Counted from the first letter of the stretch, positions 2,758 to 34,851 are shown. The stretch is DNA of 64,000 bases from an uncultured Lentisphaerales bacterium (GCA_964615975.1 CAZTTH010000008.1:13814-77813); one strand, 5' to 3'. The notes: generated by a model not told the origin, from the sequence alone. Made by a program: numbers and translations.

Positions 2758-3088
2758 AACAACTTTCAGGGATATGAAAATTTTATTAATCCGGTAGTAG
2801 AGTCAGACATATGATCCCAGACTGAACTGACACCGTGGTTAAAATTCTTCCCCGAATTCCTCGCCCCTGATCGCTGAATTGCCAGTGATCGGCCATGCGC
2901 CCGGATTTGCCAAGGTGATCGAATTTAAGCCCGAATCCAGGTACTCAAAAAGTCCAACCGCGTTACTCAGATGGAGAATCCTTAGGTAAAGTGATTGAAA
3001 ACATCATCAAGCTTGTTAATTTTACCCCCTTCATTGCGAAATTATAATACGACAATCAGGCGATAAAACAGGATTGAATTATCAACTT

Positions 3089-3640
3089 ATGAAACGTCTA
3101 CTATCAGCGCTTAAAGCCTTCTGGCACATCCTTTGCGGTCGCGAAGAGGCTCCCCCTGTCCCGGTTCAACCAGAGTCAGTAAAACCAGCAACTGCTCCGG
3201 CAACACCTGCAGCGGCGATTACCGCCGCATCCAAATCAGCTTCATCGGATAAACATACATTTCAACACGGCGCCATCTATGCCCTGGTGCTGTTGCAACG
3301 GCATGGCCGCCTGATTGATTTTCTTCAGGAAAAGCTGGACGACTACAGCGACGAACAAATCGGCACTGCCGTCCGTCAAATCCATCATGATTGCCAGGTG
3401 GTTTTCACCGAGAATTTTCACCTCCAGCGTATCCTGCCAGAGGAAGAAGGACAGCCCATAAAATTCGAAAAAGCTGTCGACCCTCTGGCAATCAAACTGA
3501 CTGGCGCCATCCCCGCCGCGCCTCCCTACCAGGGGGTGTTGCGTCACAAGGGATGGAAGATTGGTAAAATTCATTTGCCGGAACGGAGCGGGAAAATCGA
3601 TCCCCACATCATTGCCGCCGCGGAAGTGGAAATCGCTTGA
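3089..3640 (+). CDS. DUF2760-family protein (Hsp70-associated partner)
   Basis: ATG at 3089 (the track starts at a TTG at 3074). Contains a GRLIDFLQEKLDDYSDEQIG-type motif and sits immediately upstream of an Hsp70-family gene. Confidence 0.55.
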   Translation: MKRLLSALKAFWHILCGREEAPPVPVQPESVKPATAPATPAAAITAASKSASSDKHTFQHGAIYALVLLQRHGRLIDFLQEKLDDYSDEQIGTAVRQIHHDCQVVFTENFHLQRILPEEEGQPIKFEKAVDPLAIKLTGAIPAAPPYQGVLRHKGWKIGKIHLPERSGKIDPHIIAAAEVEIA

Positions 3641-5611: not shown

Positions 5612-5789
5612 AGTGGATGCAGTTCACCGTTTGGAACAACGCTATCTGGATCACCCAGGATGAAATTTTAATCCATCCAAAAATTTGCTTGGAAAATGAT
5701 AATTTTGCCGTCACCATCTGACTACCATAACAGATATACTGCACATGAATGATGGCTATTCATCTTCCCGTCAGGTTGGGCAAGGCAGC

Positions 5790-7862
5790 TTAAGCTCGTA
5801 AGTCATCCAGGAATTCTGAGGCTGGTTCAATGCCTGTGACCAGTAAATGATCCCTTGCCCGTGTACAAGCGACATAAAGCAAGTGACGTTCAGTGTCGTA
5901 GACCTCTTGCAAATCGGCATCGTCACCGACTGTTTCAATACGTTCCTGTAAGGGGATAATCTCGTCATCACAGGATATCACGGCCACGGCGCGGAATTCA
6001 AGCCCCTTGGCCAGGTGCATGGTGCAGATCGATACATGACCACTGCTCGTCTCGACATGGTCATCGAGGATATTGAATGGCAAACCCGACTCCTTGACTG
6101 CATCTTGAGCTCGTTCCAGTTGCCCTGGTGAACGCACGAAGACGCCGAATTCATGGGGTAGGAGACCGGCTTTCGTGAGCTCGGCAATCCATGTACCAAC
6201 AGAACTTATTTCGTCATTTTCACTCTTGAACACGCGAATGTCGGGTAATGGACCATTGAAGATCGAAATTGTATCGCTCCGATCTTCTCGATTGCCGTCC
6301 ACATCAGTAACTTCCGGACCAAGCAGACGATCAGCTTGCTGGCGGATTTGATGGGATGTGCGATAATTGATTCGCAGCGTGCGGGAACGACCGCGGATAT
6401 CAACACCGAGTGATTTCCAGGAGAAGGGTTGTTGGAAAATACGCTGACCAAGATCACCGGCAAAGAATAAAGCGTTGGAGCGCTCACCACCAAGCACGGC
6501 AAGGAAGCGGAGTTGTGAAACACTGAGATCCTGTGCCTCGTCAACAACTACAAAATCGAAGGGTAGCTTTTTGCTTTCCACCAATGTGGACGACAAGGCA
6601 GTGAAAATCCCCGCATGAGTGGATAACTTCCGCTCTTTCAATCCACTGCTGACCTGCTCAAAGATAGACCAGAGTACCACTCGTCGCTTTTCGGGCAGCC
6701 GGGTTTTGCGGCCAAGGCGGGCTACATCGCGGTAAGACTCCCATGTTTCCAATTGCCACGCATCGACGACTTGTTCCCATTCGGTAACCAGGAAATGCAG
6801 ACTGAACTTGTGATCTCCCACCACTTTCGCCGCGACATTGAGCAATTCCCGCACGATATCACGAGTGGCCAGGTTCACCTTGCCACATTGTGATTTAAAG
6901 AGTCGGAGACCGATGGCATTCAGGGAGTAAACTTCAATGCGTTCGACAAGACGCGGTTCGTTGCCGACCAATCGTTTTAGCTTGGTACGAAGCGCATTTG
7001 CCAGCGTGTCGGAAAAGGTTGTGAGCAGGATGCGGGCATCGGGATAGGCGCGGGCCAGATACACTGCCCGATGCAACGCCACAATCGTCTTTCCGGTTCC
7101 AGCCGATCCTGAAACACGGGATGGTCCATTTTGGTCGCGTTCCACCCATTGACGCTGTTCGGGATGGAGAAAAACAGTCCACTTCTCCCAGGGGAAATCG
7201 AGAGCACATTGAAGCTCTTCGATATTGTTCATCACCCGGAAGCGGCGTTGCGCATCGGGGTGATCAAACGGACTTGCAATCGGCATGGCCGGTTGAATCA
7301 CTCGCGGTTTGCCACCGGTGGCAAGTTCCAGGAGCGCTTCAGCCGCTTCCCCGGGCAGACGTTCCGCTAACAATAACAGGCTGTCTTCATTAACCTGGCG
7401 CACATCATTCAACCATTCTGCCGGCACGCCATAGCCAAGCAGTTCTTCATCGGAATTGGCGGTAAACAGGGGTGGTTTCGGTAGCGCCGGCAATTCCTGT
7501 TGCACATACACTGGTACATAGACCTCCTTCACCGTCTCGCGAATTTCCACGAGCTGAGCCGCCCCCGTCTTGGGATGCGTTTCCAGTTTCCGGCGTTGCG
7601 CCCAATTATAGGCTTTATCGTGGTGATCGACATAACAGAGCATCAAACTGGTACCGGTTTTGTGAACGATGAGCCGAATATCACTGGTTGCTCGAATCGA
7701 CCAGAAGTTGGCATCTTTGGCGCCCTCAATACGATGGCATTGCATCCCGGGATTGAGGGGATTCATCTGCAGGTCAAATGCCGTTGTCTTGACCGCTTTC
7801 TGCTCATCGCCGGTCAGGCGTGCAAGGCTATCGGTGAAGGTGGCGGCAATGCGGAAGTTCAT
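5790..7862 (-). CDS. UvrD-like SF1 helicase (Walker A GSAGTGKT, DEAQD) with an N-terminal ~90-aa RelE/ParE-like fold
   Basis: Helicase motifs were read from the translation. The N-terminal segment ..ANFWSIRATSDIRLIVHKTG.SLMLCYVDHHDKAY matches the RelE/ParE C-terminal pattern. Confidence 0.75.
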   Translation of the reverse strand: MNFRIAATFTDSLARLTGDEQKAVKTTAFDLQMNPLNPGMQCHRIEGAKDANFWSIRATSDIRLIVHKTGTSLMLCYVDHHDKAYNWAQRRKLETHPKTGAAQLVEIRETVKEVYVPVYVQQELPALPKPPLFTANSDEELLGYGVPAEWLNDVRQVNEDSLLLLAERLPGEAAEALLELATGGKPRVIQPAMPIASPFDHPDAQRRFRVMNNIEELQCALDFPWEKWTVFLHPEQRQWVERDQNGPSRVSGSAGTGKTIVALHRAVYLARAYPDARILLTTFSDTLANALRTKLKRLVGNEPRLVERIEVYSLNAIGLRLFKSQCGKVNLATRDIVRELLNVAAKVVGDHKFSLHFLVTEWEQVVDAWQLETWESYRDVARLGRKTRLPEKRRVVLWSIFEQVSSGLKERKLSTHAGIFTALSSTLVESKKLPFDFVVVDEAQDLSVSQLRFLAVLGGERSNALFFAGDLGQRIFQQPFSWKSLGVDIRGRSRTLRINYRTSHQIRQQADRLLGPEVTDVDGNREDRSDTISIFNGPLPDIRVFKSENDEISSVGTWIAELTKAGLLPHEFGVFVRSPGQLERAQDAVKESGLPFNILDDHVETSSGHVSICTMHLAKGLEFRAVAVISCDDEIIPLQERIETVGDDADLQEVYDTERHLLYVACTRARDHLLVTGIEPASEFLDDLRA
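7767..7862. repeat. Direct repeat copy 1: start codon plus first 32 codons of the helicase gene
   Basis: Matches 10030-10125 with 12 mismatches in 96 nt by hand alignment. Confidence 0.7.
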
Positions 7863-10242: not shown

Positions 10243-11898
10243 CTAAATAAGATGCCATTTCGGGTATTTTCGCGATCCTTCATTCCGGATTAAGTCCTCC
10301 CTTGCCATCGACTGAATCAGGTTAGTTACTTTGTTACGTTTCCGATCATCATCCAGGACATCAGATAATTTGCTGAATAAGAGCTTATCGATATCCTGGC
10401 GTGTGGCATGGCCATACTTCCGAATGAATTCCAGAATCATCTGCTTGTAATGTGCATCGTCGAAAGCGCGGTTTTTTATATACTGTGCTTTATCTCCAGT
10501 GGCCGAGGCGATATGCGCTGCCACGTATAGATTGGGATAACGGCCTTCAATAAGTTTATCATTTCGTAGCATATTCGCTTCATCTTTGGATACTGCTTGT
10601 CGTTTCTGAATTCGGTCTAATAAAATCACTTTGCTCAGCGGCAAATCTTTCTGATCCATAAGCATGACGGTGTAATTAGGGTCAATCACCTGGCCATGTA
10701 TGGTTACGATTACTTTACCCGGTGTCGATAGATTGAAATCGGGTAACGGATAAAATCGCTTGCGTTGCTCCTGGAACATCCGTCGAATGCCATATCCCAT
10801 GGTATCGATCATATTCACATTCACCATGGCGTCTGCGAGAAAACGATTACGATAGCGCTCTGGGGTCTTTTCCCGCAACGTATAATCCTCAAGCCCACCT
10901 TCGAAAAAATCTCCCGCACTCTCAAATACCAAACGATCAGGTCGCTCCGCGACAATTATCCGCGCTTGCTGGCGGTAATCCTGATGGGCAATCGCATTAT
11001 GCATTGCTTCCAGTACCACCCATTTTTCATACTTGGGGACTTCAAATGGAACCAGTTGACCGGGGACATCAAGCTTTTGCATGGTATTACGAATCCGGGC
11101 ATAACATTCACTGGTAGTCAGGAGAAATGGCGGACTGAAGTGTTCGTATGCCTGTTCCGTTCCTTCCAGTTTCCAGGTGATTTGCGCTACTGCCGGTTCC
11201 AGATGATAAGCCGCTTCTTCTCGCCCCAGCAACAGCAGACATGCACGGGTAATCGCGCCGTTCTTTGTCAATTTGGCTTTATCCAGCAATGTCGTATTCG
11301 ACCATGAATCAATCTCTCCGGCAAAGTACTTGTTTCGATTTTTATCACGAAAGTTCCGCCGAGCCGCCACGATTGCCTCCGAATTCAAGTCGTCAATAGT
11401 GGCTTGTGAACAGATTTCTGCTGACCAATCATCAAGCACTGCTTGTGACCGAATCTGCTCCAACTCATGAAGACTTAAGGCGACCAGCGACTCCCCATCG
11501 CGACCATACCAATGCCCTTTGAAGGAGACCGGCAACCCGGGCGGCGCCGCGGGAACCTGAAACATAATGACCCGGCCAGCGGCATGATACGCAATGTGAA
11601 TATCGATAAAACTCATGCGATTGGTTTGATTGGCAATTTCATGTTTAAGGCTATTCAAATAGTCTGCTTTGTCGCGATAACGACTCCCACAAATGCTCCG
11701 ATCATCATTGGCGATGCCGAACACCAGCCAGCCACAGGGTTGATGCTTGAGGTTTGCTTCATTCGCCAACGCTGAAAAATATTGCCCCAGTTTATCGAAG
11801 GAGAAATCATTTTTCGCTTCTTTGAACTCCACCCATTCCGTTTCATGGGGAAGCTGTCGTAGTTCATCAAGTTTATCAAGTAATTGCTGATTCGTCAT
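10243..11898 (-). CDS. AlbA_2 (Schlafen-like) DNA-binding + HATPase_c_4 ATP-binding protein of the RM-associated 'RecG-like C-terminal' type
   Basis: 551 aa with a typical N-terminus (LPHETEWVEFKEAK). Its ATG overlaps the mod stop as ATGA. Confidence 0.6.
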   Translation of the reverse strand: MTNQQLLDKLDELRQLPHETEWVEFKEAKNDFSFDKLGQYFSALANEANLKHQPCGWLVFGIANDDRSICGSRYRDKADYLNSLKHEIANQTNRMSFIDIHIAYHAAGRVIMFQVPAAPPGLPVSFKGHWYGRDGESLVALSLHELEQIRSQAVLDDWSAEICSQATIDDLNSEAIVAARRNFRDKNRNKYFAGEIDSWSNTTLLDKAKLTKNGAITRACLLLLGREEAAYHLEPAVAQITWKLEGTEQAYEHFSPPFLLTTSECYARIRNTMQKLDVPGQLVPFEVPKYEKWVVLEAMHNAIAHQDYRQQARIIVAERPDRLVFESAGDFFEGGLEDYTLREKTPERYRNRFLADAMVNVNMIDTMGYGIRRMFQEQRKRFYPLPDFNLSTPGKVIVTIHGQVIDPNYTVMLMDQKDLPLSKVILLDRIQKRQAVSKDEANMLRNDKLIEGRYPNLYVAAHIASATGDKAQYIKNRAFDDAHYKQMILEFIRKYGHATRQDIDKLLFSKLSDVLDDDRKRNKVTNLIQSMAREDLIRNEGSRKYPKWHLI

Positions 11899-14800
11899 GG
11901 GTTCACCCGGAATACCTTCATTACCTCGTCTCCAAGATGGTTGATTACTTTGATGGCGATGCGGCCGGACTTCGGCTTCTCGAATGGGCGGGAGGTGTCA
12001 CTGTTCAGAGTGGCCCAGGCGTCGGCGTTGATCTCGGCTTTGAGAGTGGTCTTGAGGGCGCTGTAGGGATCGTTGGCGCCAAGGAAATATGCATGGCGGA
12101 CAAAGAAGCTTTCTTCATTGTAATCGGTGTCGATGAACCAGCAGGCAATGCCATCGGTATTGCAGCTTTCTACTTCACCGGTTTGGGGTTTGAAGACATC
12201 CACTCCATTTACAGTGACCTGGAAATAGTGGCGAGTGGTCAGGGGAGAGTGGATAGCGATTTGATCAATGCGTTTAGCATTTTGTTGATCTTGGCACAAT
12301 TGTTCAATAAGTTTTCGCAGTCCTTCCTGGAAAGAAGTTCCAGCCTTTCGGACAAGATCAGAAAGGTTTCCAACTCCGCCAGCGATCCCCGCGCAATGCC
12401 AAGCGATTGTAGAAACTCCCCCGTGCTCCTGCGGGCCTGCCCTTCGGCGATGTTTGCCGGGACGGAGGTCACTGCCCGTCGCATTTGTGATGTAATCCCA
12501 TATCTCTCGGCGGCAGGAAAGCTGCGCGTAATCGCGTAGGTCTGCACCGCCAAGTCGATTGATTTCTGCCAGACTATTAACTCCCGATATGAGCTTATAG
12601 ATTTCATAAGGTGCTATTCTCCTTTCTGAACTATCCACTAACCACTCTTCACTTGCCACTTCAATATCAGGTTCCCCGAATATCACAAACAAGTTGCCTT
12701 TGCCGGTGTTCTTGAGATCTTCAGCCATGTGGAGGTCGGCGTTCATGCGGGCTTTGAGCACTGGGATGCGGCCCAGCTTCTTGAATTCGGTGGTGTGCGC
12801 TTCGTAGTTAAAAGCGCAGACGATCAAGACATCAAACCCGGCATCGCCGGCTTCGCGGGCGGCGGCGACGAGATCGGCGCGCTGGACGGTGCCGAACTCG
12901 GGGCCGATGAAGATTCCAGCACGGATTTCCGTGCCGGAATCAGTGGATAGTGAGGAGTGGTTAATGGCATATTTTTCTTGTTGATCACCCTTCACTAACC
13001 ACTCACCACTTGCTTCAAACCGCCCTTCGGCGCAGACCAATTCGCCCGGCCAGGGAACCAACGAGGTGAAAGTGATCCGATCCTCCTTGTGCGCCTGCTG
13101 CACCCCTGCGGTCTTGAGGTTTTCCAGAACCATCTGGGGGAATGACTGCTTTCCATATTCGACACCGCCTTCCAACATGGTGTCGATCAATTCGTCGTCC
13201 TCGTCGACCCCGAGCACACGATGAGGTGAAAGACTCTCCACGGTGAAGGGACCGGCGACGCGGACTGTCTTCTTGTCCTCATAGGGTTTGTCGTAGAGAT
13301 ATTCGACATCAGCCTTGGCGGAAATCGACGCATCAATTTCCTTTTGGCGGGCAATTCGTTTGTGCCACCAGTCGGAATGCAGCTTCAGAATGTGGGACAG
13401 ACATTCTTGTCTGTCTTTAGGGGGGAGTTTGGCGGTGGAAGAAGCAGACAGGAATGTCTGCTCCACACTGGCAGATTCGCGCGGAATTTCCCATTCTTCC
13501 CATTTCATATTAAGCGCGGTATTGAGCTCTGCTCGAAGAAATTCCAGCTCTGGTTGGAATTTCTCCCAGATAACATCGATCTCGGCGTTGTTGGCGATGG
13601 ACTTGAGCGTGATGTGTGGCACACGTTCATAGACGAAGCCGTGGCGGATGTTCCCCTGCACCGGTTGCGAACTTGGGGCGGTGCGAGTGACTTCGGCTTC
13701 CTTGAGCTGACCTTCAATGGAATCGACTAGTAGGTAAAAGGGATACCGTGCGCCCATGATGCGAGCACGGGCCAATGCCAGCGCCACGCGTGAGGTGTCG
13801 ATCGTGATCCAACGGCGCCCCCATTGCTCGGCGACGGTGGCGGTGGTACCAGAACCGCAGGTCGGGTCAAGTACGAGGTCACCGGGATCGGTGGCCAAGA
13901 GAAGGCATCGTTTTATTGCTTCTGTAGCAGTCTGAACGACAAAAATCTTTGGATCTGCACGGCTTTGAATGCCCCCGATATCATCCCAGACGTTTGAAAG
14001 TGTATGAACGGGAAAATCTTCAATGTAGCGAACGTAATTTAATATCTGCTTGCTCGGAGAAATACGATTTGCCAATTCGAGTCTGGCCATGCCATTGGGT
14101 GTTGTCTTCCAACTGCCTTGGTGTTCGCAGTTTCGTAGTGTCACTAACACTACTGGGTTTGCTTCTGACGTTGTCTTGTCGAGACGGAAAATTCGTGACG
14201 CGGGCGGGAAGGCATCAGGGAATTTTTCACTCGCTTGTTTTAGTGTAATTCTTGTTCCATCTGGTAGTTCGACTCCGTTGTATTTTGTGCCGCCATGTTC
14301 TCCTGGTCTCTTCTCGGCGTACAGATGCCGTGCTTTCGCATGGGTCTTATGCTTTGCGAACCAGAGAATGAAATCGCATTTGTTATTCACGAAGTCTTGA
14401 ACAAGACCTCCTGTCTTTACGAATGTGATTTGGCTGACACAATTCTCTTCTCCGAAGACCTCATCCATCACTGCCCGGACACGGTGAACATTTTCATCGC
14501 CGATCTGGACGAAGATGGAGCCGGAATCTGTTAACAAGTCACGGGCCACTGTCAACCGGTCCCGCAGGTAGGTAAGGTAGCTATGGATGCCTTCGCGCCA
14601 GGTATCGCGAAAGGCTTTAACTTGTTCGGGTTCACGTGTAATATGATCAACCTTGCCGTCCTTCACATCACGGCTGGTGGTGGACCACTGGAAATTGCTA
14701 TTGAACTTGATGCCATAAGGCGGATCGATATAGATGCACTGCACCTTGCCGCGCAACCCCTCGCGCTCGGCCAGGCTGGCCATGACCTGGAGGGAGTCGC

Positions 14801-15215
14801 CGAGGATCATGCGGTTGGACCAATTCTGATCGTGTTGATAGAACTCAGTCTTGTCCACGCCCTGAGGAATGCCATTAAAATCCGCGAATAAGTCTGGCTG
14901 CCACGATTCGGTGGAGTGATTAGTGGATAGTGAAGAGTGGCGCAGTAGATCGTCAATCAATACCTTGGGGTGAATTTTCTCCTGAATGTATAACGGCGGG
15001 GCATGGACAACGAGATCGCTCCAGTCCTGTTCATCCTTGCCGCGCCAAACGAGTTGGGGATCGAGATCGGTGTTGCGGGGATAACGCACCTGCTTGGGGT
15101 TCTGCTGCTCCTTCTCCAGCACCGACTGGTATTCGGCGGTGGGAATGTTCTTGCGCGTCGCGTCGTCGTGCTTGAGTGTTTCGACTGTCTTGGTTTTATT
15201 GTTTGCATTGGCCAT
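11895..15215 (-). CDS. mod: Type III-like N6-adenine DNA methyltransferase (Mod), long form (~1100 aa); ORF stays open across a nested four-helix-bundle gene
   Basis: Motif IV DPPYG precedes motif I DPTCGSGTT (beta-class order). The C-terminus ..GRIAIKVINHLGDEVMKVFRVNP matches the family. I prefer the ATG at 15215 (MANANNK) over the track's TTG at 15230. Confidence 0.7.
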   Translation of the reverse strand: MANANNKTKTVETLKHDDATRKNIPTAEYQSVLEKEQQNPKQVRYPRNTDLDPQLVWRGKDEQDWSDLVVHAPPLYIQEKIHPKVLIDDLLRHSSLSTNHSTESWQPDLFADFNGIPQGVDKTEFYQHDQNWSNRMILGDSLQVMASLAEREGLRGKVQCIYIDPPYGIKFNSNFQWSTTSRDVKDGKVDHITREPEQVKAFRDTWREGIHSYLTYLRDRLTVARDLLTDSGSIFVQIGDENVHRVRAVMDEVFGEENCVSQITFVKTGGLVQDFVNNKCDFILWFAKHKTHAKARHLYAEKRPGEHGGTKYNGVELPDGTRITLKQASEKFPDAFPPASRIFRLDKTTSEANPVVLVTLRNCEHQGSWKTTPNGMARLELANRISPSKQILNYVRYIEDFPVHTLSNVWDDIGGIQSRADPKIFVVQTATEAIKRCLLLATDPGDLVLDPTCGSGTTATVAEQWGRRWITIDTSRVALALARARIMGARYPFYLLVDSIEGQLKEAEVTRTAPSSQPVQGNIRHGFVYERVPHITLKSIANNAEIDVIWEKFQPELEFLRAELNTALNMKWEEWEIPRESASVEQTFLSASSTAKLPPKDRQECLSHILKLHSDWWHKRIARQKEIDASISAKADVEYLYDKPYEDKKTVRVAGPFTVESLSPHRVLGVDEDDELIDTMLEGGVEYGKQSFPQMVLENLKTAGVQQAHKEDRITFTSLVPWPGELVCAEGRFEASGEWLVKGDQQEKYAINHSSLSTDSGTEIRAGIFIGPEFGTVQRADLVAAAREAGDAGFDVLIVCAFNYEAHTTEFKKLGRIPVLKARMNADLHMAEDLKNTGKGNLFVIFGEPDIEVASEEWLVDSSERRIAPYEIYKLISGVNSLAEINRLGGADLRDYAQLSCRREIWDYITNATGSDLRPGKHRRRAGPQEHGGVSTIAWHCAGIAGGVGNLSDLVRKAGTSFQEGLRKLIEQLCQDQQNAKRIDQIAIHSPLTTRHYFQVTVNGVDVFKPQTGEVESCNTDGIACWFIDTDYNEESFFVRHAYFLGANDPYSALKTTLKAEINADAWATLNSDTSRPFEKPKSGRIAIKVINHLGDEVMKVFRVNP
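12239..12607 (-). CDS. Four-helix-bundle protein (TIGR02436 / '23S rRNA intervening-sequence protein' family), nested inside the mod ORF in a different frame
   Basis: ELIVWQKSIDLA..FP..ERYGITSQMRRAVTSVPANIAEGQARRSTGEFLQSLGIARGSLAELETFLILS.. is an unmistakable family signature. It has its own SD (aaaggag). Confidence 0.75.
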   Translation of the reverse strand: MKSISSYRELIVWQKSIDLAVQTYAITRSFPAAERYGITSQMRRAVTSVPANIAEGQARRSTGEFLQSLGIARGSLAELETFLILSERLELLSRKDCENLLNNCAKINKMLNALIKSLSTLP

Positions 15216-15376
15216 GTTATTAAATCCCAAAATCAGGTTGTTGTCTACATTTATTCGGCCCGCTAATCACGCAAAACACACGAATGTTCAGTTCTCAGTT
15301 AAGAATGAAGGCTGATTTGCTTGGATTGAATATTCGTGTCGTTCGTCTGATTCGTGGTTAAATTTGAACGGTGGTG

Positions 15377-15436
15377 AACGGAGGGCGGGTTTTCCAACCC
15401 GCCAAACAAGGCGGACAGGAATGTCCGCCCTCCGTT
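15377..15436 (-). promoter_or_regulatory. Structured element between the RHH gene and mod with mutually exclusive hairpins
   Basis: aacggagggcgg...ccgccctccgtt (12-bp inverted repeat) encloses the ggcgggtt-ttcc-aacccgcc and ggcggaca-ggaa-tgtccgcc stem-loops. On the mRNA strand the second loop is followed by TTGTTT. Confidence 0.35.
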
Positions 15437-15473
15437 ATCCTCAAAATCGATACCTGAGTTGTTACAATATATT

Positions 15474-15707
15474 TTATATTTTGCCATCGCGTTTCAATTC
15501 GATAATCATGTCCTCAAACGAAACTAATGGTTCATCCGCGCGCATATCGAAGGCGGCTAAATCCTCTGTATCCTCCGCCAGCGACAATATTACCGCTTCA
15601 TTAACGAGGTCGGACATCGATCTTGATGTATCAATGGACTTTTGCTGTAATGCTTTATGAATATCCGGTTTTAGGTAAATAGTGGAACGTTTTGATAATA
15701 CTGTCAT
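15474..15707 (-). CDS. Ribbon-helix-helix (CopG/antitoxin-like) DNA-binding protein, 77 aa
   Basis: TIYLKPDIHKALQQKSIDTSRSMSDLVNEAV is an RHH-like beta-alpha-alpha N-terminus. No adjacent toxin ORF. Confidence 0.45.
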   Translation of the reverse strand: MTVLSKRSTIYLKPDIHKALQQKSIDTSRSMSDLVNEAVILSLAEDTEDLAAFDMRADEPLVSFEDMIIELKRDGKI

Positions 15708-15777
15708 ATGATAACCTCCATGATTTTATTGATTGAACAATTATAACGTTACATTACCAATCGTGGAATGAAAAATT

Positions 15778-16350
15778 TCAAACTGCCAATCGGTCAGTGA
15801 CTACATCATCGATCATCTTGTTGAACTCGGCTTCAACCTTTTTAGTAAAATCCGCCTCGATCTGATAAACCATGCGTTCGCTCGCCCGGATTTCGCAGAC
15901 CTCTTCAAGCAGTTCCTCGAAGTATCGCCGGTCGAAACGAGTGCCGTGTTTAAAGCGGTCGGAATCGATAGCGAAACCTTTGAGGATGTAGTCCTTTAAC
16001 CGATCGGTAGCCCAGGTACGAAATTGGGTCGCTCGCACGCTTTTGACGCGATACCCAACAGCTATGATCGCTTCGAGGCTGTAAAGCTTCGTACGATACT
16101 GCTTGCCATCAGCGGCAGTTACCGAGGATTCCTCGGTAACTGCTGATTCGATTAGTTCTTGATCGGCGAAAATATTCTTTAAATGCAAGGAGATATTGTC
16201 GGTGGAACACTCATAAAGTTCGGCTATGAGTTTCTGGGTGAGCCAAACATTTTCGTTCTCGAAGCGAACTTCAACGCGAGCCCGCCCATCTTCACTTGCG
16301 AAGATGGTGATATTGTCGATGCGTATAGGTTGCGAATTTTTAGACATCAT
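15778..16350 (-). CDS. RhuM-family virulence-associated protein
   Basis: NISLHLKNIF..YSLEAIIAVGYRVKSVRATQFRTWAT block. Overlaps the fic stop by 1 nt. Confidence 0.6.
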   Translation of the reverse strand: MMSKNSQPIRIDNITIFASEDGRARVEVRFENENVWLTQKLIAELYECSTDNISLHLKNIFADQELIESAVTEESSVTAADGKQYRTKLYSLEAIIAVGYRVKSVRATQFRTWATDRLKDYILKGFAIDSDRFKHGTRFDRRYFEELLEEVCEIRASERMVYQIEADFTKKVEAEFNKMIDDVVTDRLAV

Positions 16351-17435
16351 TAACTTCCTTCCTGCATGGATTCTCTGGTCAAAATAGCATTCAAGGCGGT
16401 GTTAATGTAGTAATTAGTCCGCCCTATTTTTTGTTTTTTAAGGAAGCCGCCGCCGGTCAACGCATCGAGATATTTGGTGGCGGTGAGGCGCGACACCTTC
16501 AGATCACGTTCGACGAATTCGATCTTGGTATAGGGGTGGGTAAACAGGTTATTGATCAGATCCTGACTGTAAAACTTGTACTCCGCGCGAATACGGTGCT
16601 TCGCATCCATCAACGCCGCATTAATGGCATGGATGGTTTCGATGGCATCACCGGCGGTTGATTCAATGGCGGTAAGCAGGTAAAGCACCCACTCTTCCCA
16701 TGCATCGTTTTCGCGAACACTCTGAAGCAGTCGATAATAATCCGGTTTGGTGCGGACGATGTGGCGGCTGAGATATAGCACCGGGATATCGAGCAGACCT
16801 TCCTTCACCAAGTAAAGCACATTAACGATGCGGCCGGTGCGGCCATTGCCATCATAGAACGGGTGGATACTTTCAAACTGGTGATGGATCAACGCCATTT
16901 TAATGAGCGGGTCAGCGGCAAATAAATCACGATCATTGATGAAACGCTCAAGATCGCGCATGAGCGCGATAATGGTATCTGGATCTTGCGGCGGCATATA
17001 GATCGCCTGACCAGAGCCATCTTTCAACACAGTCCCTGGCAGTTTGCGGAAACCGGCGTTGTTTTGCTCCAGCTCTACCTGAATCTGAATGATATGGTTG
17101 ATGGTAAGCAGACCACTTTGTTGCACTAGATCGAATCCAACCCGTAAAGCCTGGCGATACCGTAGTACCTCCTTGGCGGCGCCATGGTGCAAGTTCTCGG
17201 GAAAAAGGTCATCTTTATATAATTCGTCATGAGTGGTCACGATGTTTTCTATGGCCGAACTATCCTTGGCCTCCTGTATTCCCAGAGTGTTGATGAGTAT
17301 CCCCTGGTTAGGAATGGAGGCGGCGACTCCCTTGAGTTCAGCTAGTTTACGACTTGTTAAAGCCAATTTTTTAAGGATAACGGGAGTATCGAATCTTATC
17401 GACGGCAAACGATCTAATGGCAGAATGGTGGTCAT
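16350..17435 (-). CDS. Fic/Doc family protein (AMPylation-type; motif HPFYDGNGRTGR) with a C-terminal wHTH-like region
   Basis: Canonical Fic motif HPFxDGNGRxxR was read in the translation. Confidence 0.85.
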   Translation of the reverse strand: MTTILPLDRLPSIRFDTPVILKKLALTSRKLAELKGVAASIPNQGILINTLGIQEAKDSSAIENIVTTHDELYKDDLFPENLHHGAAKEVLRYRQALRVGFDLVQQSGLLTINHIIQIQVELEQNNAGFRKLPGTVLKDGSGQAIYMPPQDPDTIIALMRDLERFINDRDLFAADPLIKMALIHHQFESIHPFYDGNGRTGRIVNVLYLVKEGLLDIPVLYLSRHIVRTKPDYYRLLQSVRENDAWEEWVLYLLTAIESTAGDAIETIHAINAALMDAKHRIRAEYKFYSQDLINNLFTHPYTKIEFVERDLKVSRLTATKYLDALTGGGFLKKQKIGRTNYYINTALNAILTRESMQEGS

Positions 17436-17537
17436 GTTATCCCCTTAACCCCTTGTCGATATGTATATAAAAATAGCGTTTTCTATACATATGGCGCACA
17501 ATGTGTATAGGATATGGCAAGATTGTATACGGATTAT

Positions 17538-20500
17538 TCATAATGATGCCGGCCGCGGGTGTATTATCATGCTTAACATCCGATCAAATTCAAATTTAAC
17601 CTTCTTGGAAAAATCTGCCTCAATCTGATAAACATCATTGAACTCGGCGAATGCCCAGCGGCCAAACGTGCCCAGGTTGTTCACACCGGGTACCCAGTAG
17701 GTTTCGATGGCGGACTTCTTATCCTTGGCATCCTCGCGGCGGTAGCCTTTGATCTCAACAATCAGATGGAGGAGATCGTCGGGCCCGTGGCCGTCATCCA
17801 CGCGCACGATAAAGTCCGGCAGATACTTGCGGATTTCAGAACCATGGCGATAGGGCACTTCGAGGCCGAGGTTGTGATTTTTGACGTAGGCATGAACTTT
17901 AGGGTGCGACTCGGCGACCCGGCAGAACTCGGCTTCCCAATCGCTGTCGAGGATAACCCAGTTGATATGGCAACTCTTGGAACTGGTTTCCCAGCGGTCA
18001 CGGCGCGAGGTGTTAAAGCGAACATGGGCCGTGGAGCCCGTGGGATTATAAGGGTCGAGCAGGGCTTTGATGGGACGTTCTCCGACGAAGGCGCGGGTAA
18101 TACCGGCAGTAATGCGTTCGCAAGCTATATCAGCGAGCATTTTGTATTTTAACTGCGCGGGGTAAGTTCTACCCTTGCAAATCAAGCAAGTGTCCAGCCA
18201 ATGCTTGGCAATCCGTTTCAATTGTCCGAAAAGATTAAAATGGGCAGACTGCCCCGGGTCACGCCAATGATTCAGAACGAGATGGGAAGTCAATTCAAAA
18301 AGAATTTGTGATGGACGCACCTCTCTAGTATGATCGAGAGTCAGGTCGACAGTTTGTCCAATTATTCCAGACTGACGAGTCGTTGTTGCACCAACCAACT
18401 CCGGGGTAAGCTCAAGAATCGAGTCTTGGTCAAATTGGGCAATTAGACGATCATCGGGCAATTCAACACGATAGCCTGCCACACGGGGGAAAATTATCTC
18501 CAGATGATTTCTCTCTGGGCTAATGGCTTTCACTCGGACGGTTTGCGGGGGTGGTTGTGGGGGAGAGATTACGGGCTGGGCTGTAAAGTTAAAGGGAATG
18601 CCAATAATATCAGCATATTCTACATTGAACAATCCTTTATCCGATCCTTCCTCATTTAGCCAATAGGACCATCGCCTCAGAGCTCGGCCGATGACCTGTT
18701 CACATAGTAGCTGAGTACCAAAAGCCCGAACTCCAAGTACATGAGTGACAGTGTTGGCATCCCAGCCCTCGGTAAGCATGGAAACTGAAACAACACAACG
18801 AATGTCACTACCAAGTGTCCCAGGTTTGCCCACAGTGTTCATAACTTCCCGCAATAGGGTTGTATCGTCGAAATCTTTTCCTTCCCTCAATTGCTCCGCC
18901 AAGGGGCCGCCTCTTTCCATAACTTGACTCTTGAACTGAGTAATTTCAGGGGCTGCAACTGCTCGGAAGTTATCATCGAAACCTTCCCCCGATTCCAATT
19001 GAGCGCTGTCGATGAGCAATGTGTATGGGCGAGTTAATGGGTTGCCGTGCTCGTCATGATTTCGGAATAGTTCGAGACGTCCACCCACAGGCTTGAAGCT
19101 TCCATCCTCCTGCAGTTGATCAAAGCCAGAAATGAAATCGTAGATTAGCTTCGAAACGGCCGTGTTCTGACAAACAATGATAAAGCATGGCGGAACCGGG
19201 ATCCCTCTTTCTCGCCAACACTGAAAAGTTTTGGAATAGTGGCCATAGAGTGCTTCGAGTGCGGTTTGAAGTAAGGGGGGCAGGCTCAAAGGGTCAAGTC
19301 TAGACTGACCGCGCTTTTTCTTTGGCATTTTCGAGCGCACGTTCTCCCACAGATTTCTGAATAACGGAACGTCAGCTCCGGGTATGTTGTCCGAGACTGG
19401 AACCCGAGGCAATTTCACGATTCCGCACTCAATTGCGTCCATGAGTGAAAAATCGCTCATCGTCCAGTGGAACATCGTACCTTCTCGATATCCAGAGCCA
19501 CGGAGAAAGAAAGGTGTTGCAGAAAGATCGATTACACGAAGAAGACCGATTTTGCGATTCACTTTCTCAAGTCCCGAAATCCAAAGTCGTGCCGCCTTGT
19601 TGTTCTCCGCAGCTTCTTCCCTGGCTTCTCTCAGTGCGTTGCCAGAAAGAGGATTACCTTCTGAATCAGTGAACTGACTGTCGTCTGCAGGTTTCTCACG
19701 ATAACAGTGATGTGCCTCGTCATTTATAACAAGGATATTTTTCATGCCCATGAGTTCGGGCATGACACGTTGAATCATCTGGCCTTCGGTCTCAAGTGTT
19801 AGCGGATCATCACCGGTTCGGCCCTTGAGGAGTTGACGGTTGCCTTTTGAAAGATTGGTGCGCTCCCGGAGTTTGAAGGCATGGTAGTTGGTGATGACAA
19901 TCTTGGCCTTCTTGAGATCGTCGAGCATATCATGCGGCACGAGTTCGCGGCTAGCATAATAGCTGTCAGGATCGTGGGGTTGGAGGACGCGCAGACGATC
20001 CTTGATGGTCAGACCGGGGGCGACGATGAGGAACCCACGGCTGAAATATTTGCTGCCAGGGCGGCGGACAGCATTGATGGTTTGCCAGGCGATAAGCATG
20101 GCCATAACGGTGGTCTTGCCAGCGCCGGTGGCCAGTTTCAGGGCGAAGCGCATGAGTTCAGGATTGGCATCCTGATTAGCGCTTGCCAGGTAATCGAGCA
20201 ATTGTTTACTGCTCTTATAAAAGGGAGCGACTTCGGTCAGCCAGATGGCGGTTTCGACCGCTTCAATCTGACAGAAGAACGGGCGGAAGTCGCCGAATTT
20301 ATGGTGACGCCAGTGCTGCAGCAGGCGGGTTGTCTCGGGGCTAACCTGCCATTGGCCGGGATTGGACAACGCCCGCCAGGCATTCACATGGCGGCGAACT
20401 TCATTGATGTTGGACGTAGGATCGTATTGCTGATCCTTGGTCGAAAGCCCCTGGCCTTCGTCGAATACGAATTCTTCCTGAGCGGCGGATTGCTTCCGCT

Positions 20501-20654
20501 TCTTCGGTTTGGGAATAGGAGTGATAAACTCAGCCCGGCGACGACTCAGCATGATCCGCTGTGTCGGTTGTCCAGATTTATCCAATTCCCAGTGTCGACT
20601 TGGACACTCATAAGGCGAGTTGAGGATGGGGTGGTCGAAGAAGGGATTGGACAT
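17538..20654 (-). CDS. res: Type III-like restriction enzyme Res subunit (SF2 helicase with DEAH box, C-terminal PD-(D/E)xK-like nuclease region)
   Basis: Walker A GAGKT and VINDEAHH are present. The C-terminus carries DFIVRVDD...EIKGY. The last ~20 aa (VYQIEADFSKKVKFEFDRM) copy a segment of the RhuM C-terminus. Confidence 0.7.
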   Translation of the reverse strand: MSNPFFDHPILNSPYECPSRHWELDKSGQPTQRIMLSRRRAEFITPIPKPKKRKQSAAQEEFVFDEGQGLSTKDQQYDPTSNINEVRRHVNAWRALSNPGQWQVSPETTRLLQHWRHHKFGDFRPFFCQIEAVETAIWLTEVAPFYKSSKQLLDYLASANQDANPELMRFALKLATGAGKTTVMAMLIAWQTINAVRRPGSKYFSRGFLIVAPGLTIKDRLRVLQPHDPDSYYASRELVPHDMLDDLKKAKIVITNYHAFKLRERTNLSKGNRQLLKGRTGDDPLTLETEGQMIQRVMPELMGMKNILVINDEAHHCYREKPADDSQFTDSEGNPLSGNALREAREEAAENNKAARLWISGLEKVNRKIGLLRVIDLSATPFFLRGSGYREGTMFHWTMSDFSLMDAIECGIVKLPRVPVSDNIPGADVPLFRNLWENVRSKMPKKKRGQSRLDPLSLPPLLQTALEALYGHYSKTFQCWRERGIPVPPCFIIVCQNTAVSKLIYDFISGFDQLQEDGSFKPVGGRLELFRNHDEHGNPLTRPYTLLIDSAQLESGEGFDDNFRAVAAPEITQFKSQVMERGGPLAEQLREGKDFDDTTLLREVMNTVGKPGTLGSDIRCVVSVSMLTEGWDANTVTHVLGVRAFGTQLLCEQVIGRALRRWSYWLNEEGSDKGLFNVEYADIIGIPFNFTAQPVISPPQPPPQTVRVKAISPERNHLEIIFPRVAGYRVELPDDRLIAQFDQDSILELTPELVGATTTRQSGIIGQTVDLTLDHTREVRPSQILFELTSHLVLNHWRDPGQSAHFNLFGQLKRIAKHWLDTCLICKGRTYPAQLKYKMLADIACERITAGITRAFVGERPIKALLDPYNPTGSTAHVRFNTSRRDRWETSSKSCHINWVILDSDWEAEFCRVAESHPKVHAYVKNHNLGLEVPYRHGSEIRKYLPDFIVRVDDGHGPDDLLHLIVEIKGYRREDAKDKKSAIETYWVPGVNNLGTFGRWAFAEFNDVYQIEADFSKKVKFEFDRMLSMIIHPRPASL

Positions 20655-20949: not shown

Positions 20950-21410
20950 AAATTCATCGGCGGGTGTAAGCCGGATTCTGTCCTCTGGTGGTAACGCCGT
21001 GTTGATCATGACGGTTAAGCCATGAATCAACGCGGCTCCCAGAGTAACGACCATTTATCTGCGCGGTCTACCCGGAACTTATATCTTGCGAAACGGCACG
21101 GGCCGCGCCTTGTTCCCTATTTGACCTTGCTCCAGGATGGGTTTACCCTGCGATTCGGCTTGCGCCGGAATCCGGTGGGCTCTTACCCCACCATTTCACC
21201 CTTACCCCATCTTCACCGCCGGCAGGATGGTTCGCATCCCGCCGGCGGTGAAGATGAGGCGGTATATTTTCTGTGGCACTTTCCTGACCGAGGCGTCTGG
21301 TCCTCGATATCCGGGATTGCTCCCGGATTCCTCGCCCTGTGGAGTCCGGACTTTCCTCCATTTCAGGTGATGATCCTGAAACAGCGACCGTTCCCCGCCG
21401 ATGAAATTTG
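20950..21410 (-). ncRNA. rnpB: RNase P RNA, bacterial type A
   Basis: Minus strand reads GGAGGAAAGTCCGGACTCC, ..AGGAAAGTGCCACAGAAAATATACCGCC.., GGTAAGGGTGAAATGGTGGGGTAAGAGCCCACC and ..GACAGAATCCGGCTTACACCCGCC. The P1 pairing is ttcatcggcggg / cccgccgatgaa. Ends are approximate. Confidence 0.8.
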
Positions 21411-32998: not shown

Positions 32999-33952
32999 TT
33001 ACTTGGTTTGTAATCCGATACGAACTTCCAGGGTTAGCGGGGTGATTTCCAGCGGGACACAATCATTGGCATCGACCCAAAGGTGAACCGGAAGTCGGCA
33101 GGTGCCAATCGTGGATATCTTTGAGATATCAATGAATGGACGCAGCGACGAATTGCTCAAGGCGTCCATTACCCCTTTGGGGCCATTGACCACTGCTTCC
33201 GCCTTGAGAGACCCTCCCGATAAAATCTCCGCCACGTAAAAATCCTTGTTTGAGGAATTCATTATGGCAATGTCAAGATCACTGAATAATTTGGAATCTC
33301 GCATCTTATAAAGCTCGACAGTGACTTTGACTTTTTCCGGTGTGATGGTGACCTGAGGGAGTTTCTCGAGGGCGATTTCGATTTCAAAATCCTGCATGAT
33401 CGATTTATCCAGCTTGATTGGCTCGGTGGTAATATCTCTGATACCCCTGATGGTTTTGGAGGGTCCGGTTATTTGCACGATCTTGGGGACAATGATCAGG
33501 TTTTTCCGTCCATAATCCTCCGGTAATTGACCATCAAAACGACATCGGATGGGCACGGAATCCTTGGTTTCAACCTGATCAATATAAACGTGGAATGAAT
33601 TGGGTTGAATATCAACCACTTCCATATGACCGGGTAATTCGATATTTTTGTCCCTTAACTGCACGGTATAGCGTCCGTTGGTGGCTTCTTCGCTTATCTG
33701 ACCAAAAACTTTGATATCGGCATTGGTCATATTTTTCAACCGCTTTTTTGACCCTTTAACCGTGACATTTACTTTGGGTAATTCCTGTTCGCCGACAGTG
33801 ATTGATTTGTTATGTTTCAAGGTGATGGGGATATCGCGATACACTTCTTCTTCGCTCAATTGTTTATGGACGGAATACCAGATGAGGAAAGCGCAGGTAA
33901 ATGCCATAAGTTTCCGTGGCAAGTCGATGCGAAGCGGCCCATGCAATTTCAT
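32999..33952 (-). CDS. cdaR: YbbR-domain protein CdaR (diadenylate cyclase regulator)
   Basis: Repeated YbbR-like beta domains. Its ATGA overlap with cdaA implies translational coupling. Confidence 0.6.
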   Translation of the reverse strand: MKLHGPLRIDLPRKLMAFTCAFLIWYSVHKQLSEEEVYRDIPITLKHNKSITVGEQELPKVNVTVKGSKKRLKNMTNADIKVFGQISEEATNGRYTVQLRDKNIELPGHMEVVDIQPNSFHVYIDQVETKDSVPIRCRFDGQLPEDYGRKNLIIVPKIVQITGPSKTIRGIRDITTEPIKLDKSIMQDFEIEIALEKLPQVTITPEKVKVTVELYKMRDSKLFSDLDIAIMNSSNKDFYVAEILSGGSLKAEAVVNGPKGVMDALSNSSLRPFIDISKISTIGTCRLPVHLWVDANDCVPLEITPLTLEVRIGLQTK

Positions 33953-34851
33953 GACGATTTTTCCTTTTCCATGTTTTTCATGACCGGCAAGGACTTGACG
34001 ATTGAGGTGATTTGGGATTTTAAGTCGATTGATTTCCCTGCCAGAACGATTCCGGTCTTATCTTTTTTTACCAGATAATTGAGGAGGTGACGCCCCAGTC
34101 TCTCCGCGTTAATATTGCGCACCAACTTGCCTTTGTGTGCCAGGCTGACAAAACCCTCTTCTTCCGAGACAATGATCGAGACGGCATCAGTTTCTTCCGT
34201 GATCCCGACCCCGGCGCGATGTCGGGTCCCCATGGATTTGCCAATTTCAGCCTGAGTCAGAGGAAAAAAGCATGCAGCCGAGAGGATGATGCCGTTTTTA
34301 ATCACGACCGCGCCATCATGAAGGGGCGTATTGGGATAAAAAATCGTCGAGAGCAATTCAGAGGATACGGGCGCATTGATCTTGACCCCGGCTTCGGTGT
34401 AAAACCGCATGCCGATATCCCTTTCGATGGTAATCAAAGCGCCGATCTTTTTTTCCGCCAGGCTATAGGCGGAGTGAATCAATGCGTTGATGGTTTCTTC
34501 TTTCGTTTTAGCCGTGCTGATCAAGCGGTGAGGATTGACTCCGATTTCGGCAAATACACTGCGAATTTCGGGTTGAAAGATGATCAACAGCGCAAAAAAC
34601 ATTAATGCGGGGAGCTTGGCGATAATCCACTCAATGACTTCCAATCCGAAAATCTGAGAAAGGATCCACCCGCTGAGAATGGTAATGACAATTCCCACCA
34701 GTATGGGTTCCGCGCGGGTCCCTTTCAAAAACAATAAAACCGTGTAGATAATAACCGTCAGTAATCCGATCTGAATTATAAATTGCACCATTTCGCGCAA
34801 AGGCGTCCAGTATCTTCCGAAATACTCGATTGCGGTTACCAGGTTTTCCAT
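33949..34851 (-). CDS. cdaA: Membrane-anchored diadenylate cyclase CdaA
   Basis: Three N-terminal TM helices, then a DAC domain with DGA and RHRAG motifs. Confidence 0.8.
   Translation of the reverse strand: MENLVTAIEYFGRYWTPLREMVQFIIQIGLLTVIIYTVLLFLKGTRAEPILVGIVITILSGWILSQIFGLEVIEWIIAKLPALMFFALLIIFQPEIRSVFAEIGVNPHRLISTAKTKEETINALIHSAYSLAEKKIGALITIERDIGMRFYTEAGVKINAPVSSELLSTIFYPNTPLHDGAVVIKNGIILSAACFFPLTQAEIGKSMGTRHRAGVGITEETDAVSIIVSEEEGFVSLAHKGKLVRNINAERLGRHLLNYLVKKDKTGIVLAGKSIDLKSQITSIVKSLPVMKNMEKEKSS

Follow-up and report, generated by a model that had tools for sequence, protein, structure and literature searches.

Within a 64,000-nt stretch of DNA from an uncultured Lentisphaerales bacterium (GCA_964615975.1, CAZTTH010000008.1:13814-77813; here called the window, whose coordinates are used throughout), a gene for a small four-helix-bundle (4HB) protein lies inside the reading frame of mod, the methyltransferase gene of a Type III-like restriction-modification (R-M) locus, as part of an insert that resembles the intervening sequences (IVSs) of 23S rRNA genes. 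All features described are on the minus strand, and their coordinates are collected in Table 1. The N-terminal half of Mod is a beta-class methyltransferase of the Type III type (PF01555, E=2e-33 in a Pfam profile search) with the motifs DPPYGIKF and PTCGSGTT, which are invariant among aligned homologues. The protein matches the PADLOC model MTase_III PDLC03632 (E=0), and 6k0w and 4zcf (EcoP15I), both of them Type III Mod structures, are its top PDB matches by sequence and by fold. It is very conserved, with 60-80% identity in many phyla. The gene thus combines two of the features that define a Type III Mod, a beta-class methyltransferase bearing these motifs and a Res partner in the same locus. 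The res gene encodes ResIII and RE_endonuc domains and is intact, as an earlier reading of the sequence alone (hereafter the original prediction) had it, although the PADLOC REase_III match to it is weak (9.6e-5).

The nested open reading frame (ORF) matches PF05635 across profile positions 1-106 of 106 (E=8e-39, 132.6 bits, cut-off 33.8), as well as TIGR02436 (E=2.3e-39, 134 bits, cut-off 24) and NF008911 (146.6 bits, cut-off 137). Among PDB entries it matches 2gsc, a solved four-helix-bundle protein (E=8.5e-23), and 2rld (E=1.2e-10). Its length falls in the family range of ~110-130 aa, and the stretch 'PANIAEGQAR' contains the ANIAEG motif of the family. With full-domain matches above curated cut-offs, the predicted protein is a member of the PF05635/TIGR02436 four-helix-bundle family. 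The original prediction had placed such an ORF, with its own Shine-Dalgarno (SD) sequence, in a different frame on the same strand inside a Mod frame that stays open, and each of these points held up. The offset is +1, because 15230-12607=2623, which equals 1 modulo 3; an SD-like AAGGAG precedes the ATG; and the database protein P0001 (1106 aa, its start being called at Met6) is 100% identical to the window Mod right across the nested gene. A purine-rich GGAGG-type tract is found at the SD position in most, though not all, orthologous elements. A scan for sigma-70-like promoters on the minus strand inside mod found none, and no PADLOC model matches the 4HB protein. Its nearest relatives in a database of 5.8 billion proteins share 70-82% identity and are nested in mod wherever checked. 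A weak tblastn match to the 4HB protein elsewhere in the window, at 33783-33956 on the minus strand, was set aside as chance, since it sits in a 317-aa ORF in a different reading frame.

Table 1. Coordinates and properties of the features at the mod locus
Feature	Position	Strand	Description
mod, Type III-like	11895..15230	(-)	1111 codons from TTG start; no stop across the nested element
Mod-frame read-through peptide	12222..12662	(-)	Mod codons 857-1003; 4HB -1 frame
IVS-type element	12227..12660	(-)	434 nt: 5' arm, SD-like spacer, 4HB ORF, 3' arm
5' arm	12631..12660	(-)	four 7-nt units, AGTGGCA AGTGAAG AGTGGTT AGTGGAT
SD-like AAGGAG	12619-12624	(-)	11 nt upstream of the 4HB ATG
4HB gene (23S rRNA IVS protein / S23p family)	12239..12607	(-)	122 aa; inside the mod ORF, +1 frame relative to mod
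3' arm	12227..12256	(-)	four 7-nt units, ATCCACT CTCCCCT GACCACT CGCCACT
ORF-less mini-hairpin, same 7-nt-unit family	12936..13010	(-)	in frame, Mod aa ~741-765, '..EWLVKGDQQEKYAINHSSLST..'
Solo 3'-arm-type remnant, same family	14905..14940	(-)	in frame, Mod aa ~97-108, 'HSSLSTNHS'
res	17538..20654	(-)	1038 aa, intact; ResIII and RE_endonuc domains

Alignment of Mod to orthologues that lack the insert, a check proposed with the original prediction, fixed both the site and the extent of the element. We scored the stretch from GEPDI to GVDVF, two invariant landmarks, in 118 close Mod homologues (the scorable top matches): 72 of them, drawn from several phyla, have an insert at the same loop, whereas the other 46 have a loop of 14-19 residues instead (insert-free sequence 'tLLPEkDGKLRVKVN'). 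The two landmarks are 152 residues apart in the window Mod and 15 in insert-free orthologues, a net insertion of ~137 aa rather than the ~125 aa first proposed. Most of the 72 inserts are 152-158 aa long (n=54), 17 are 161-166 aa and one is 97 aa. We refer to the 152-158-aa inserts, which include the window element, as class A ('VASEEWLVDS...HSPLTTxHY'), and those of 161-166 aa mostly belong to a 161-aa class B ('V.SGQWLV...DFPLSLTTDH'). Shrunken inserts of 89 aa (L043) and 74 aa (L021) were seen at the DNA level. Orthologue DNA came from four species-representative genomes (Balneolales L001, Dehalococcoidia L002, Arenicellales L003 and bacterium BMS3Bbin14 L006), from Chromatiales (L081), from several Pseudanabaena assemblies (L082-L089) and from 43 metagenome loci, and wherever it was obtained the insert contained an ORF matching PF05635 and offset by +1 from Mod. 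The original prediction would have fallen if Mods carried a homologous segment but no 4HB ORF; all Mods with the segment have the ORF or recognisable remnants of it. An assembly chimera was rejected, the same arrangement being found in dozens of independent assemblies. An AlphaFold2 (AF2) model of Mod, with an overall mean predicted local distance difference test (pLDDT) score of 63, places the insert between the strands at residues 854-865 and 998-1014.

The anatomy of the element is that of an ORF-bearing IVS and supports the proposal of a small inverted-repeat-bounded 4HB element inserted into mod. The inverted 9-mers that had been thought to bracket the gene, AGTGGATAG (12248-56) and CTATCCACT (12631-39), are both present, but they are only the core of 30-nt arms built of tandem 7-nt units, and the left (3') arm overlaps the end of the nested ORF, holding its last codons and its stop codon. 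The arms are 77% complementary, with a duplex energy of -33.6 kcal/mol compared to -17.2 +/- 3.4 for shuffled arms. The ends of the element pair in its minimum-free-energy fold, and the fold of the whole element is unremarkable (z=-1.78). When 23 class-A elements were aligned (A4), a terminal consensus stem of 21 pairs proved to be retained in 96% of cells; its variation is mostly to G-U on the 3' arm, and its covariation score was reached by 13 of 500 shuffles, a weak signal that follows from the near-invariance of the arms. No part of the element is more conserved than the 5' arm (pairwise difference 0.104), and Mod third positions vary much less within that arm (0.19) than in the flanks (0.43-0.46), which points to constraint at the nucleotide level. 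The element thus has the terminal inverted repeats closed by a long stem, and the tandem heptamers upstream of a sense S23p ORF within ~0.4-0.75 kb, that characterise IVSs, and it lies inside the mod ORF rather than in helix 25 or helix 45 of 23S rRNA. No target-site duplication is evident at its junctions, and the many dispersed copies and target-site duplications typical of MITEs (miniature transposable elements with inverted repeats) or Rickettsia palindromic elements (RPEs) are absent from the 64-kb window. A gathering-threshold Rfam scan of the window returned RNase P RNA as its sole match, with no rRNA, no intron family and no family matching the element.

We compared the two overlapping frames in 35 non-redundant intact 4HB coding sequences, taking synonymous-codon shuffling within each gene as the null. 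The Mod frame contained 1 stop where 101.7 were expected and was stop-free across the nested gene in 34 of the 35 copies, whereas the third frame contained as many stops as expected, 4-16 per copy. Across 26 class-A copies, per-site diversity in the overlap was 0.138, 0.168 and 0.378 at 4HB codon positions 1, 2 and 3; in the flanks, 240 nt upstream and 285 nt downstream, it was ~0.08, 0.05 and 0.45 in Mod codon phase on both sides. Translated in the 4HB frame, the overlap had a mean amino-acid identity of 75%, compared to 58% for the Mod frame and 53% for the third. Since substitutions follow the 4HB codon phase while stops are avoided in the Mod frame, these comparisons show the 4HB amino-acid sequence to be under purifying selection and the Mod frame to be held free of stops and frameshifts, with a peptide sequence that is barely constrained. 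The read-through peptide had been called not protein-like. It is more than junk, given that it aligns without gaps among dozens of orthologues, but its sequence is indeed hardly constrained, and the gapless alignment results from conservation of the overlapping 4HB gene. Downstream of the insert, the Mod segment is under strong purifying selection in the Mod frame. The C-terminus that resumes there, noted from the outset and conserved in homologues, is by this pattern most probably a functional, translated part of Mod.

Loss of one frame leaves the other standing at several loci. In L021, L043, L096 and L123, Mod remains open while the 4HB gene carries a stop or has undergone an internal deletion in multiples of three; L102 and L097/99 show the converse, a broken Mod beside an intact 4HB; and a few loci are degraded in both frames. 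The two genes decay independently of each other. A fusion of Mod to 4HB by programmed frameshifting was rejected on account of conserved 4HB-frame stops upstream of the 4HB ATG. At L117 (3553-3884), a frameshift of 1 nt close to where the nested gene ends (3') runs the 4HB frame into the C-terminus of Mod and leaves the Mod frame closed; it reflects either a pseudogene or a sequencing error.

The 4HB genes of class A and class B are ~51% identical. In neighbour-joining trees of three conserved Mod regions, both classes interleave with insert-free sequences, these regions being too conserved for resolution, and synonymous sites in the flanks are saturated (identity 0.50-0.55 in all comparisons). 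Within class A, 4HB distances co-vary with flank distances (Mantel r=0.73, a value reached by 0 of 2000 permutations), which indicates long co-inheritance rather than recent hopping. On this sequence evidence, the element is shown to be old, travelling with a horizontally spreading mod family and co-diverging with its host gene.

The window mod also contains short, ORF-less relatives of the element (Table 1). The mini-hairpin has a folding energy of -22.3 kcal/mol, against -13.5 +/- 3.0 for shuffles, and some orthologues have a complete hairpin where the window retains a solo arm. Over all loci, such minis are 50-140 nt long with a dG of -17 to -60 kcal/mol, lie in frame in other variable loops of Mod, and come and go from one close orthologue, and from one site, to the next. 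Counted across all loci, the arm motif (AGTGGnnAGTG or its complement) has a density of 0.89/kb inside mod versus 0.07/kb in flanking DNA; it is limited to mods with a 4HB element, with none in ~70 insert-free mods, and the window has no copy outside mod. At the protein level, an extra arm-type motif is found in 26 of the 72 insert-bearing Mods and in 0 of the 46 insert-free ones. In Pseudanabaena (L082:6799-6894), a hairpin of the same family lies in frame in a UvrD-like helicase gene downstream of mod, so that the minis are not strictly confined to mod. At L107 (130-241), 16 tandem copies of the 7-nt arm unit AGTGGnn stand just upstream of the mod start (ORF from 303); simple-sequence tracts of this kind render Type III mod genes phase-variable.

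Related 4HB elements were found in other settings. On replicon AZO_p2 of Azospirillum lipoferum 4B (L137), a 4HB ORF lies on the sense strand ~1160-1180 nt into a 23S gene, between arms of 7-nt units that are complementary at 22 of 24 positions, and the element is a genuine ORF-bearing IVS. The ORF (3001-3345) belongs to the rrn operon at L137:1798-4996, and the plasmid gene table annotates no gene there. Unrelated 4HB genes are likewise flanked by inverted tandem-heptamer arms of lineage-specific sequence, including one between nrdB and nrdA on a Nostoc plasmid, one between a parA-like gene and parB on a Geminocystis plasmid, and one after an integrase gene on a Calothrix plasmid. In L006, a second, distant 4HB gene (5623-5907, 26% identity) with its own GAAGAGT-type heptamer arms stands directly upstream of a mod that already bears a class-B element.

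Other protein-coding hosts emerged from a search of 1.84 billion representative proteins with the Mod-frame peptide, which gave 58 matches, Mod fragments among them; one, P0261, was discarded as a eukaryotic low-complexity false positive. In three MmeI/Eco57I-like genes, with insertions at two different sites (L139; L141 and L142), an intact PF05635 ORF is nested at +1, flanked by arms, in a host frame that has no stops. The same holds for L140, a distant homologue of the Mod C-terminal domain, at the homologous loop. In every nested copy found, the host frame is the -1 frame of 4HB. The 545-aa ORF of L140 (1-3138) joins a DUF559/MTES_1575 endonuclease-like N-terminus to this Mod-like domain with its nested 4HB. 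An IS3-type transposase and a PF01555 gene that looks truncated stand directly upstream of it, and the locus has probably been rearranged. An old insertion shared by most close homologues across phyla, its companion minis and its other R-M gene hosts go beyond what was first predicted.

We favour the view, at a probability of about 80%, that the insert in mod is a long-resident, dual-coding element of the same kind as the ORF-bearing 23S IVSs, situated in a beta-hairpin loop of the Mod C-terminal domain. Ribosomes on mod would read straight through the element, so that Mod would gain a tolerated surface linker of ~137 residues, while the mod mRNA would also yield 4HB as a separate product, initiated at the SD-like site and ATG that belong to the 4HB gene. 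The conserved arms would form an RNA stem, the substrate of RNase III in rRNA IVSs and a possible target here. The -1 frame of 4HB would be the only viable host frame, since stops in the arms and in the 4HB gene close the two remaining sense frames. We regard 4HB as cargo that the element maintains for itself, and not as a component of Mod.

Several points weigh against this account. The 35 copies are related and hence are not independent trials, and a database of called proteins is biased towards open frames. The SD-like tract lies 11 nt from the ATG and is non-canonical in part of the copies, and covariation lends the stem little weight, with 2 compensatory pairs only. In the AF2 model, parts of the Mod-frame peptide (aa 861-920 and 961-980) form helices with pLDDT 72-88, outscoring some truly conserved regions of Mod; these helices could be real structure beyond a passive linker or an artefact of 4HB-driven covariation. 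Translation of either frame, and any cleavage by RNase III, are things we infer from sequence. The S23p protein of Coxiella burnetii is reported to be decaying and probably not expressed (PMC4990558), so expression of 4HB cannot be assumed by analogy.

Three further explanations were considered. The original prediction allowed that mod is split or inactivated, and the locus might then be a pseudogene or be expressed in two pieces, its open frame left over from a recent insertion. A few copies do have broken Mod frames (L102, L090, L097/99, L114, L117, L126 and L131), and NCBI Pseudanabaena records have a 4HB gene and no mod gene. Against this, copies that have diverged by ~23% of nucleotides hold a single Mod-frame stop where ~102 are expected, internal deletions that destroy 4HB preserve the Mod frame, the downstream segment is strongly purified in that frame, and the catalytic motifs and res are intact, so that disruption seems very improbable; tolerance of an in-frame insertion, the other possibility originally raised, is supported by the deficit of stops. 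It is harder still to credit that the ~150-aa segment is a true Mod domain with an incidental or overprinted 4HB frame. The gapless alignment in dozens of Mods and the AF2 helices would suit such a domain, yet variability in the overlap follows the codon phase of 4HB and not of Mod, identity in the Mod frame (58%) is near the 53% of the third, non-coding frame, and the segment is missing from 46 of 118 close Mods; moreover, the nested ORF is a strong PF05635/TIGR02436 member of a family found alone in hairpins in rRNA genes and intergenic DNA. We give equally little credence to removal or skipping of the element before Mod is finished, whether by RNA excision and re-joining or by ribosomal bypass of the hairpin. 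The paired ends would bring the two Mod junctions together, and RNase III does excise IVSs from rRNA, but that excision proceeds without ligation, the window has no Rfam intron family and neither an intein nor a Hint domain was found in Mod. An element that is skipped would need no open, in-register Mod frame, yet such a frame is what is seen.

Two other explanations accept the dual coding and differ over what 4HB is for. It might have been co-opted as a partner of the R-M system, as a regulator or as a nucleic-acid-binding accessory like Avd, with nesting ensuring co-inheritance and co-expression. Long-term purifying selection on 4HB within mod and its co-divergence with mod would accord with this, as would related nested copies in other R-M methyltransferase genes, the second 4HB element just upstream of mod in L006 and the weak overlap of PF05635 matches with bAvd. 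However, 46 of 118 close Mods do without 4HB, it decays in some lineages with Mod still open, no PADLOC model matches it, and other 4HB genes stand in unrelated contexts (nrdB/nrdA, parA/parB, 23S rRNA); the hosts found are also biased by the query used. We therefore regard co-option as unlikely. Alternatively, the element may be, or may recently have been, an autonomous mobile element whose 4HB protein spreads the hairpin, with the minis as non-autonomous copies, as in RAYT/REP systems. This explanation draws on the restriction of minis to 4HB-bearing Mods, in the densities and the 26/72 against 0/46 distribution given above, on their variable presence among close orthologues and sites, on the mini in the neighbouring helicase gene, on independent insertions in MmeI-like genes, and on rRNA IVSs that likewise occur with and without an ORF. 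On the other side, the main-class element co-diverges with mod and gives no sign of recent movement, no target-site duplications were seen, the 64-kb window has no copies elsewhere, and the minis could be inherited remnants of deleted full elements, to which L021 and L043 look intermediate. To our knowledge, the 4HB fold has no nuclease or recombinase chemistry. Current or recent autonomy accordingly seems improbable to us as well.

The favoured reading, a long-resident dual-coding element of IVS type, can be set beside several known systems. The IVS of Coxiella burnetii in helix 45 is 428 nt long and has a 28-bp terminal stem, heptamers in tandem stand upstream of its S23p ORF, RNase III excises it, and rRNA IVSs occur both with and without an ORF and are excised without subsequent ligation (PMC4990558). 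The mod element is like the 23S IVSs of Coxiella, Leptospira and Azospirillum (L137) in size (434 nt compared to 428 nt in Coxiella), in its terminal stem of ~28-30 bp with arms of tandem 7-nt units, in the sense PF05635/S23p ORF of its loop with a purine-rich SD-like tract between 5' arm and ATG, and in having ORF-less hairpin versions. It differs in that its host is a protein-coding gene, from which it is not simply excisable and hence would be read through in frame, and in that its ORF is under purifying selection whereas Coxiella S23p is reported to be decaying. It is therefore built like an IVS, and would work like one, but, lacking the defining rRNA location, is not itself an rRNA IVS. 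RPEs lie in frame within protein-coding genes and are tolerated as extra peptide segments (PMC10969869), and the Mod mini-hairpins behave in the same way as these and other intragenic MITEs. RPEs, however, are ~150 bp long, have no independent gene and are scattered over many unrelated genes of one genome, whereas the large mod copy bears a conserved gene in a second frame, the copies in the window are confined to mod, and the family moves with its host gene between phyla.

Likeness to other selfish or accessory elements is more limited. In REP/BIME and RAYT systems, too, a protein gene is flanked by inverted hairpin repeats related to nearby short ORF-less copies, but 4HB has no transposase fold or motifs, and copies of its element are found within ORFs instead of between genes. 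Avd (bAvd) of diversity-generating retroelements belongs to the same four-helix-bundle superfamily and matches 4HB weakly, below family thresholds (PF22296, 30.7 bits with a cut-off of 40; NF033474, 32.1 bits with a cut-off of 80). Avd systems differ in that no reverse transcriptase, template or variable repeats lie near the window 4HB, and we rejected such a retroelement on the sub-threshold profile scores and the lack of a reverse transcriptase gene in the neighbourhood. Like inteins and group I/II introns, the mod insert is selfish, occupies a fixed site and resides in a conserved gene that moves horizontally and whose function is preserved. Unlike them, it has no Hint or homing-endonuclease domain and no intron RNA family, and would stay in the mRNA and presumably in the protein; an intein was rejected since Pfam finds no Hint or homing-endonuclease domain in Mod, and an intron since Rfam finds no intron family in the window. 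The finding is thus a variant on IVS elements, in-frame palindromic elements and overlapping genes, and not a new category. No prior description of IVS-type elements inside protein-coding genes was found in the searchable literature, whose coverage is incomplete, so that this is absence of evidence only.

The R-M locus belongs to a composite defence island (window 10243-20654 and 20951-21403) with the order res, SoFic (16350-17435), a PDC-S05/RhuM-like gene (15778-16350), a 77-aa ORF, mod and a Schlafen-AlbA_2/HATPase_c_4 gene, the start of which overlaps the mod stop. The SoFic and PDC-S05 genes, identified with PADLOC, thus stand between res and mod, and RNase P RNA lies directly beyond res. 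A second palindrome in mod, unrelated to the 7-nt-unit family and perfect-looking (TGTGGGACAGACATTCTTGTCTG / CAGACAGGAATGTCTGCTCCACA, 13391-13467), forms a hairpin of -33.5 kcal/mol compared to -14.5 +/- 2.9 for shuffles. Its insertion keeps the Mod frame ('..SASSTAKLPPKDRQECLSHILK..'), orthologues have either nothing or a different 54-aa insert at that loop, and the window holds no further copy of it. As regards annotation, only Mod (P0001) is on record for the source of the window, not the nested 4HB gene, and the Pseudanabaena records L082-L089 hold the nested 4HB gene only, without the surrounding 1186-codon mod ORF.

On a broader and more speculative view, heptamer-armed 4HB hairpins would form one widespread selfish class residing in 23S rRNA, in spacers and in large defence genes (Type III Mod, MmeI-like), in which copies situated inside ORFs survive only through read-through by the host in the 4HB -1 frame and 4HB maintains or propagates the hairpins. 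We think this doubtful as a whole. If true, it would describe how long-lived dual-coding regions arise and how autonomous elements come to be paired with ORF-less minis, and it would explain why minis gather only in genes that hold a 4HB copy.

The origin and mobility of IVS elements and the function of S23p/4HB proteins have gone unexplained for >30 years (PMC4990558). The mod insert places an IVS architecture outside rRNA, in a protein-coding defence gene, with 4HB demonstrably under purifying selection, which argues that the 4HB protein does something. The arrangement should also be genetically tractable, as a stop in 4HB can be silent in Mod and vice versa. Since pipelines call either mod or the nested gene, never both, such loci are mis-annotated as pseudogenes or are left short of a gene. 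Taken together, the mod loci constitute a clean natural case of dual coding, with ~370 nt of same-strand overlap maintained across bacterial phyla in which one frame is selected for its sequence and the other for openness only, and these elements may have a preference for restriction-modification genes.

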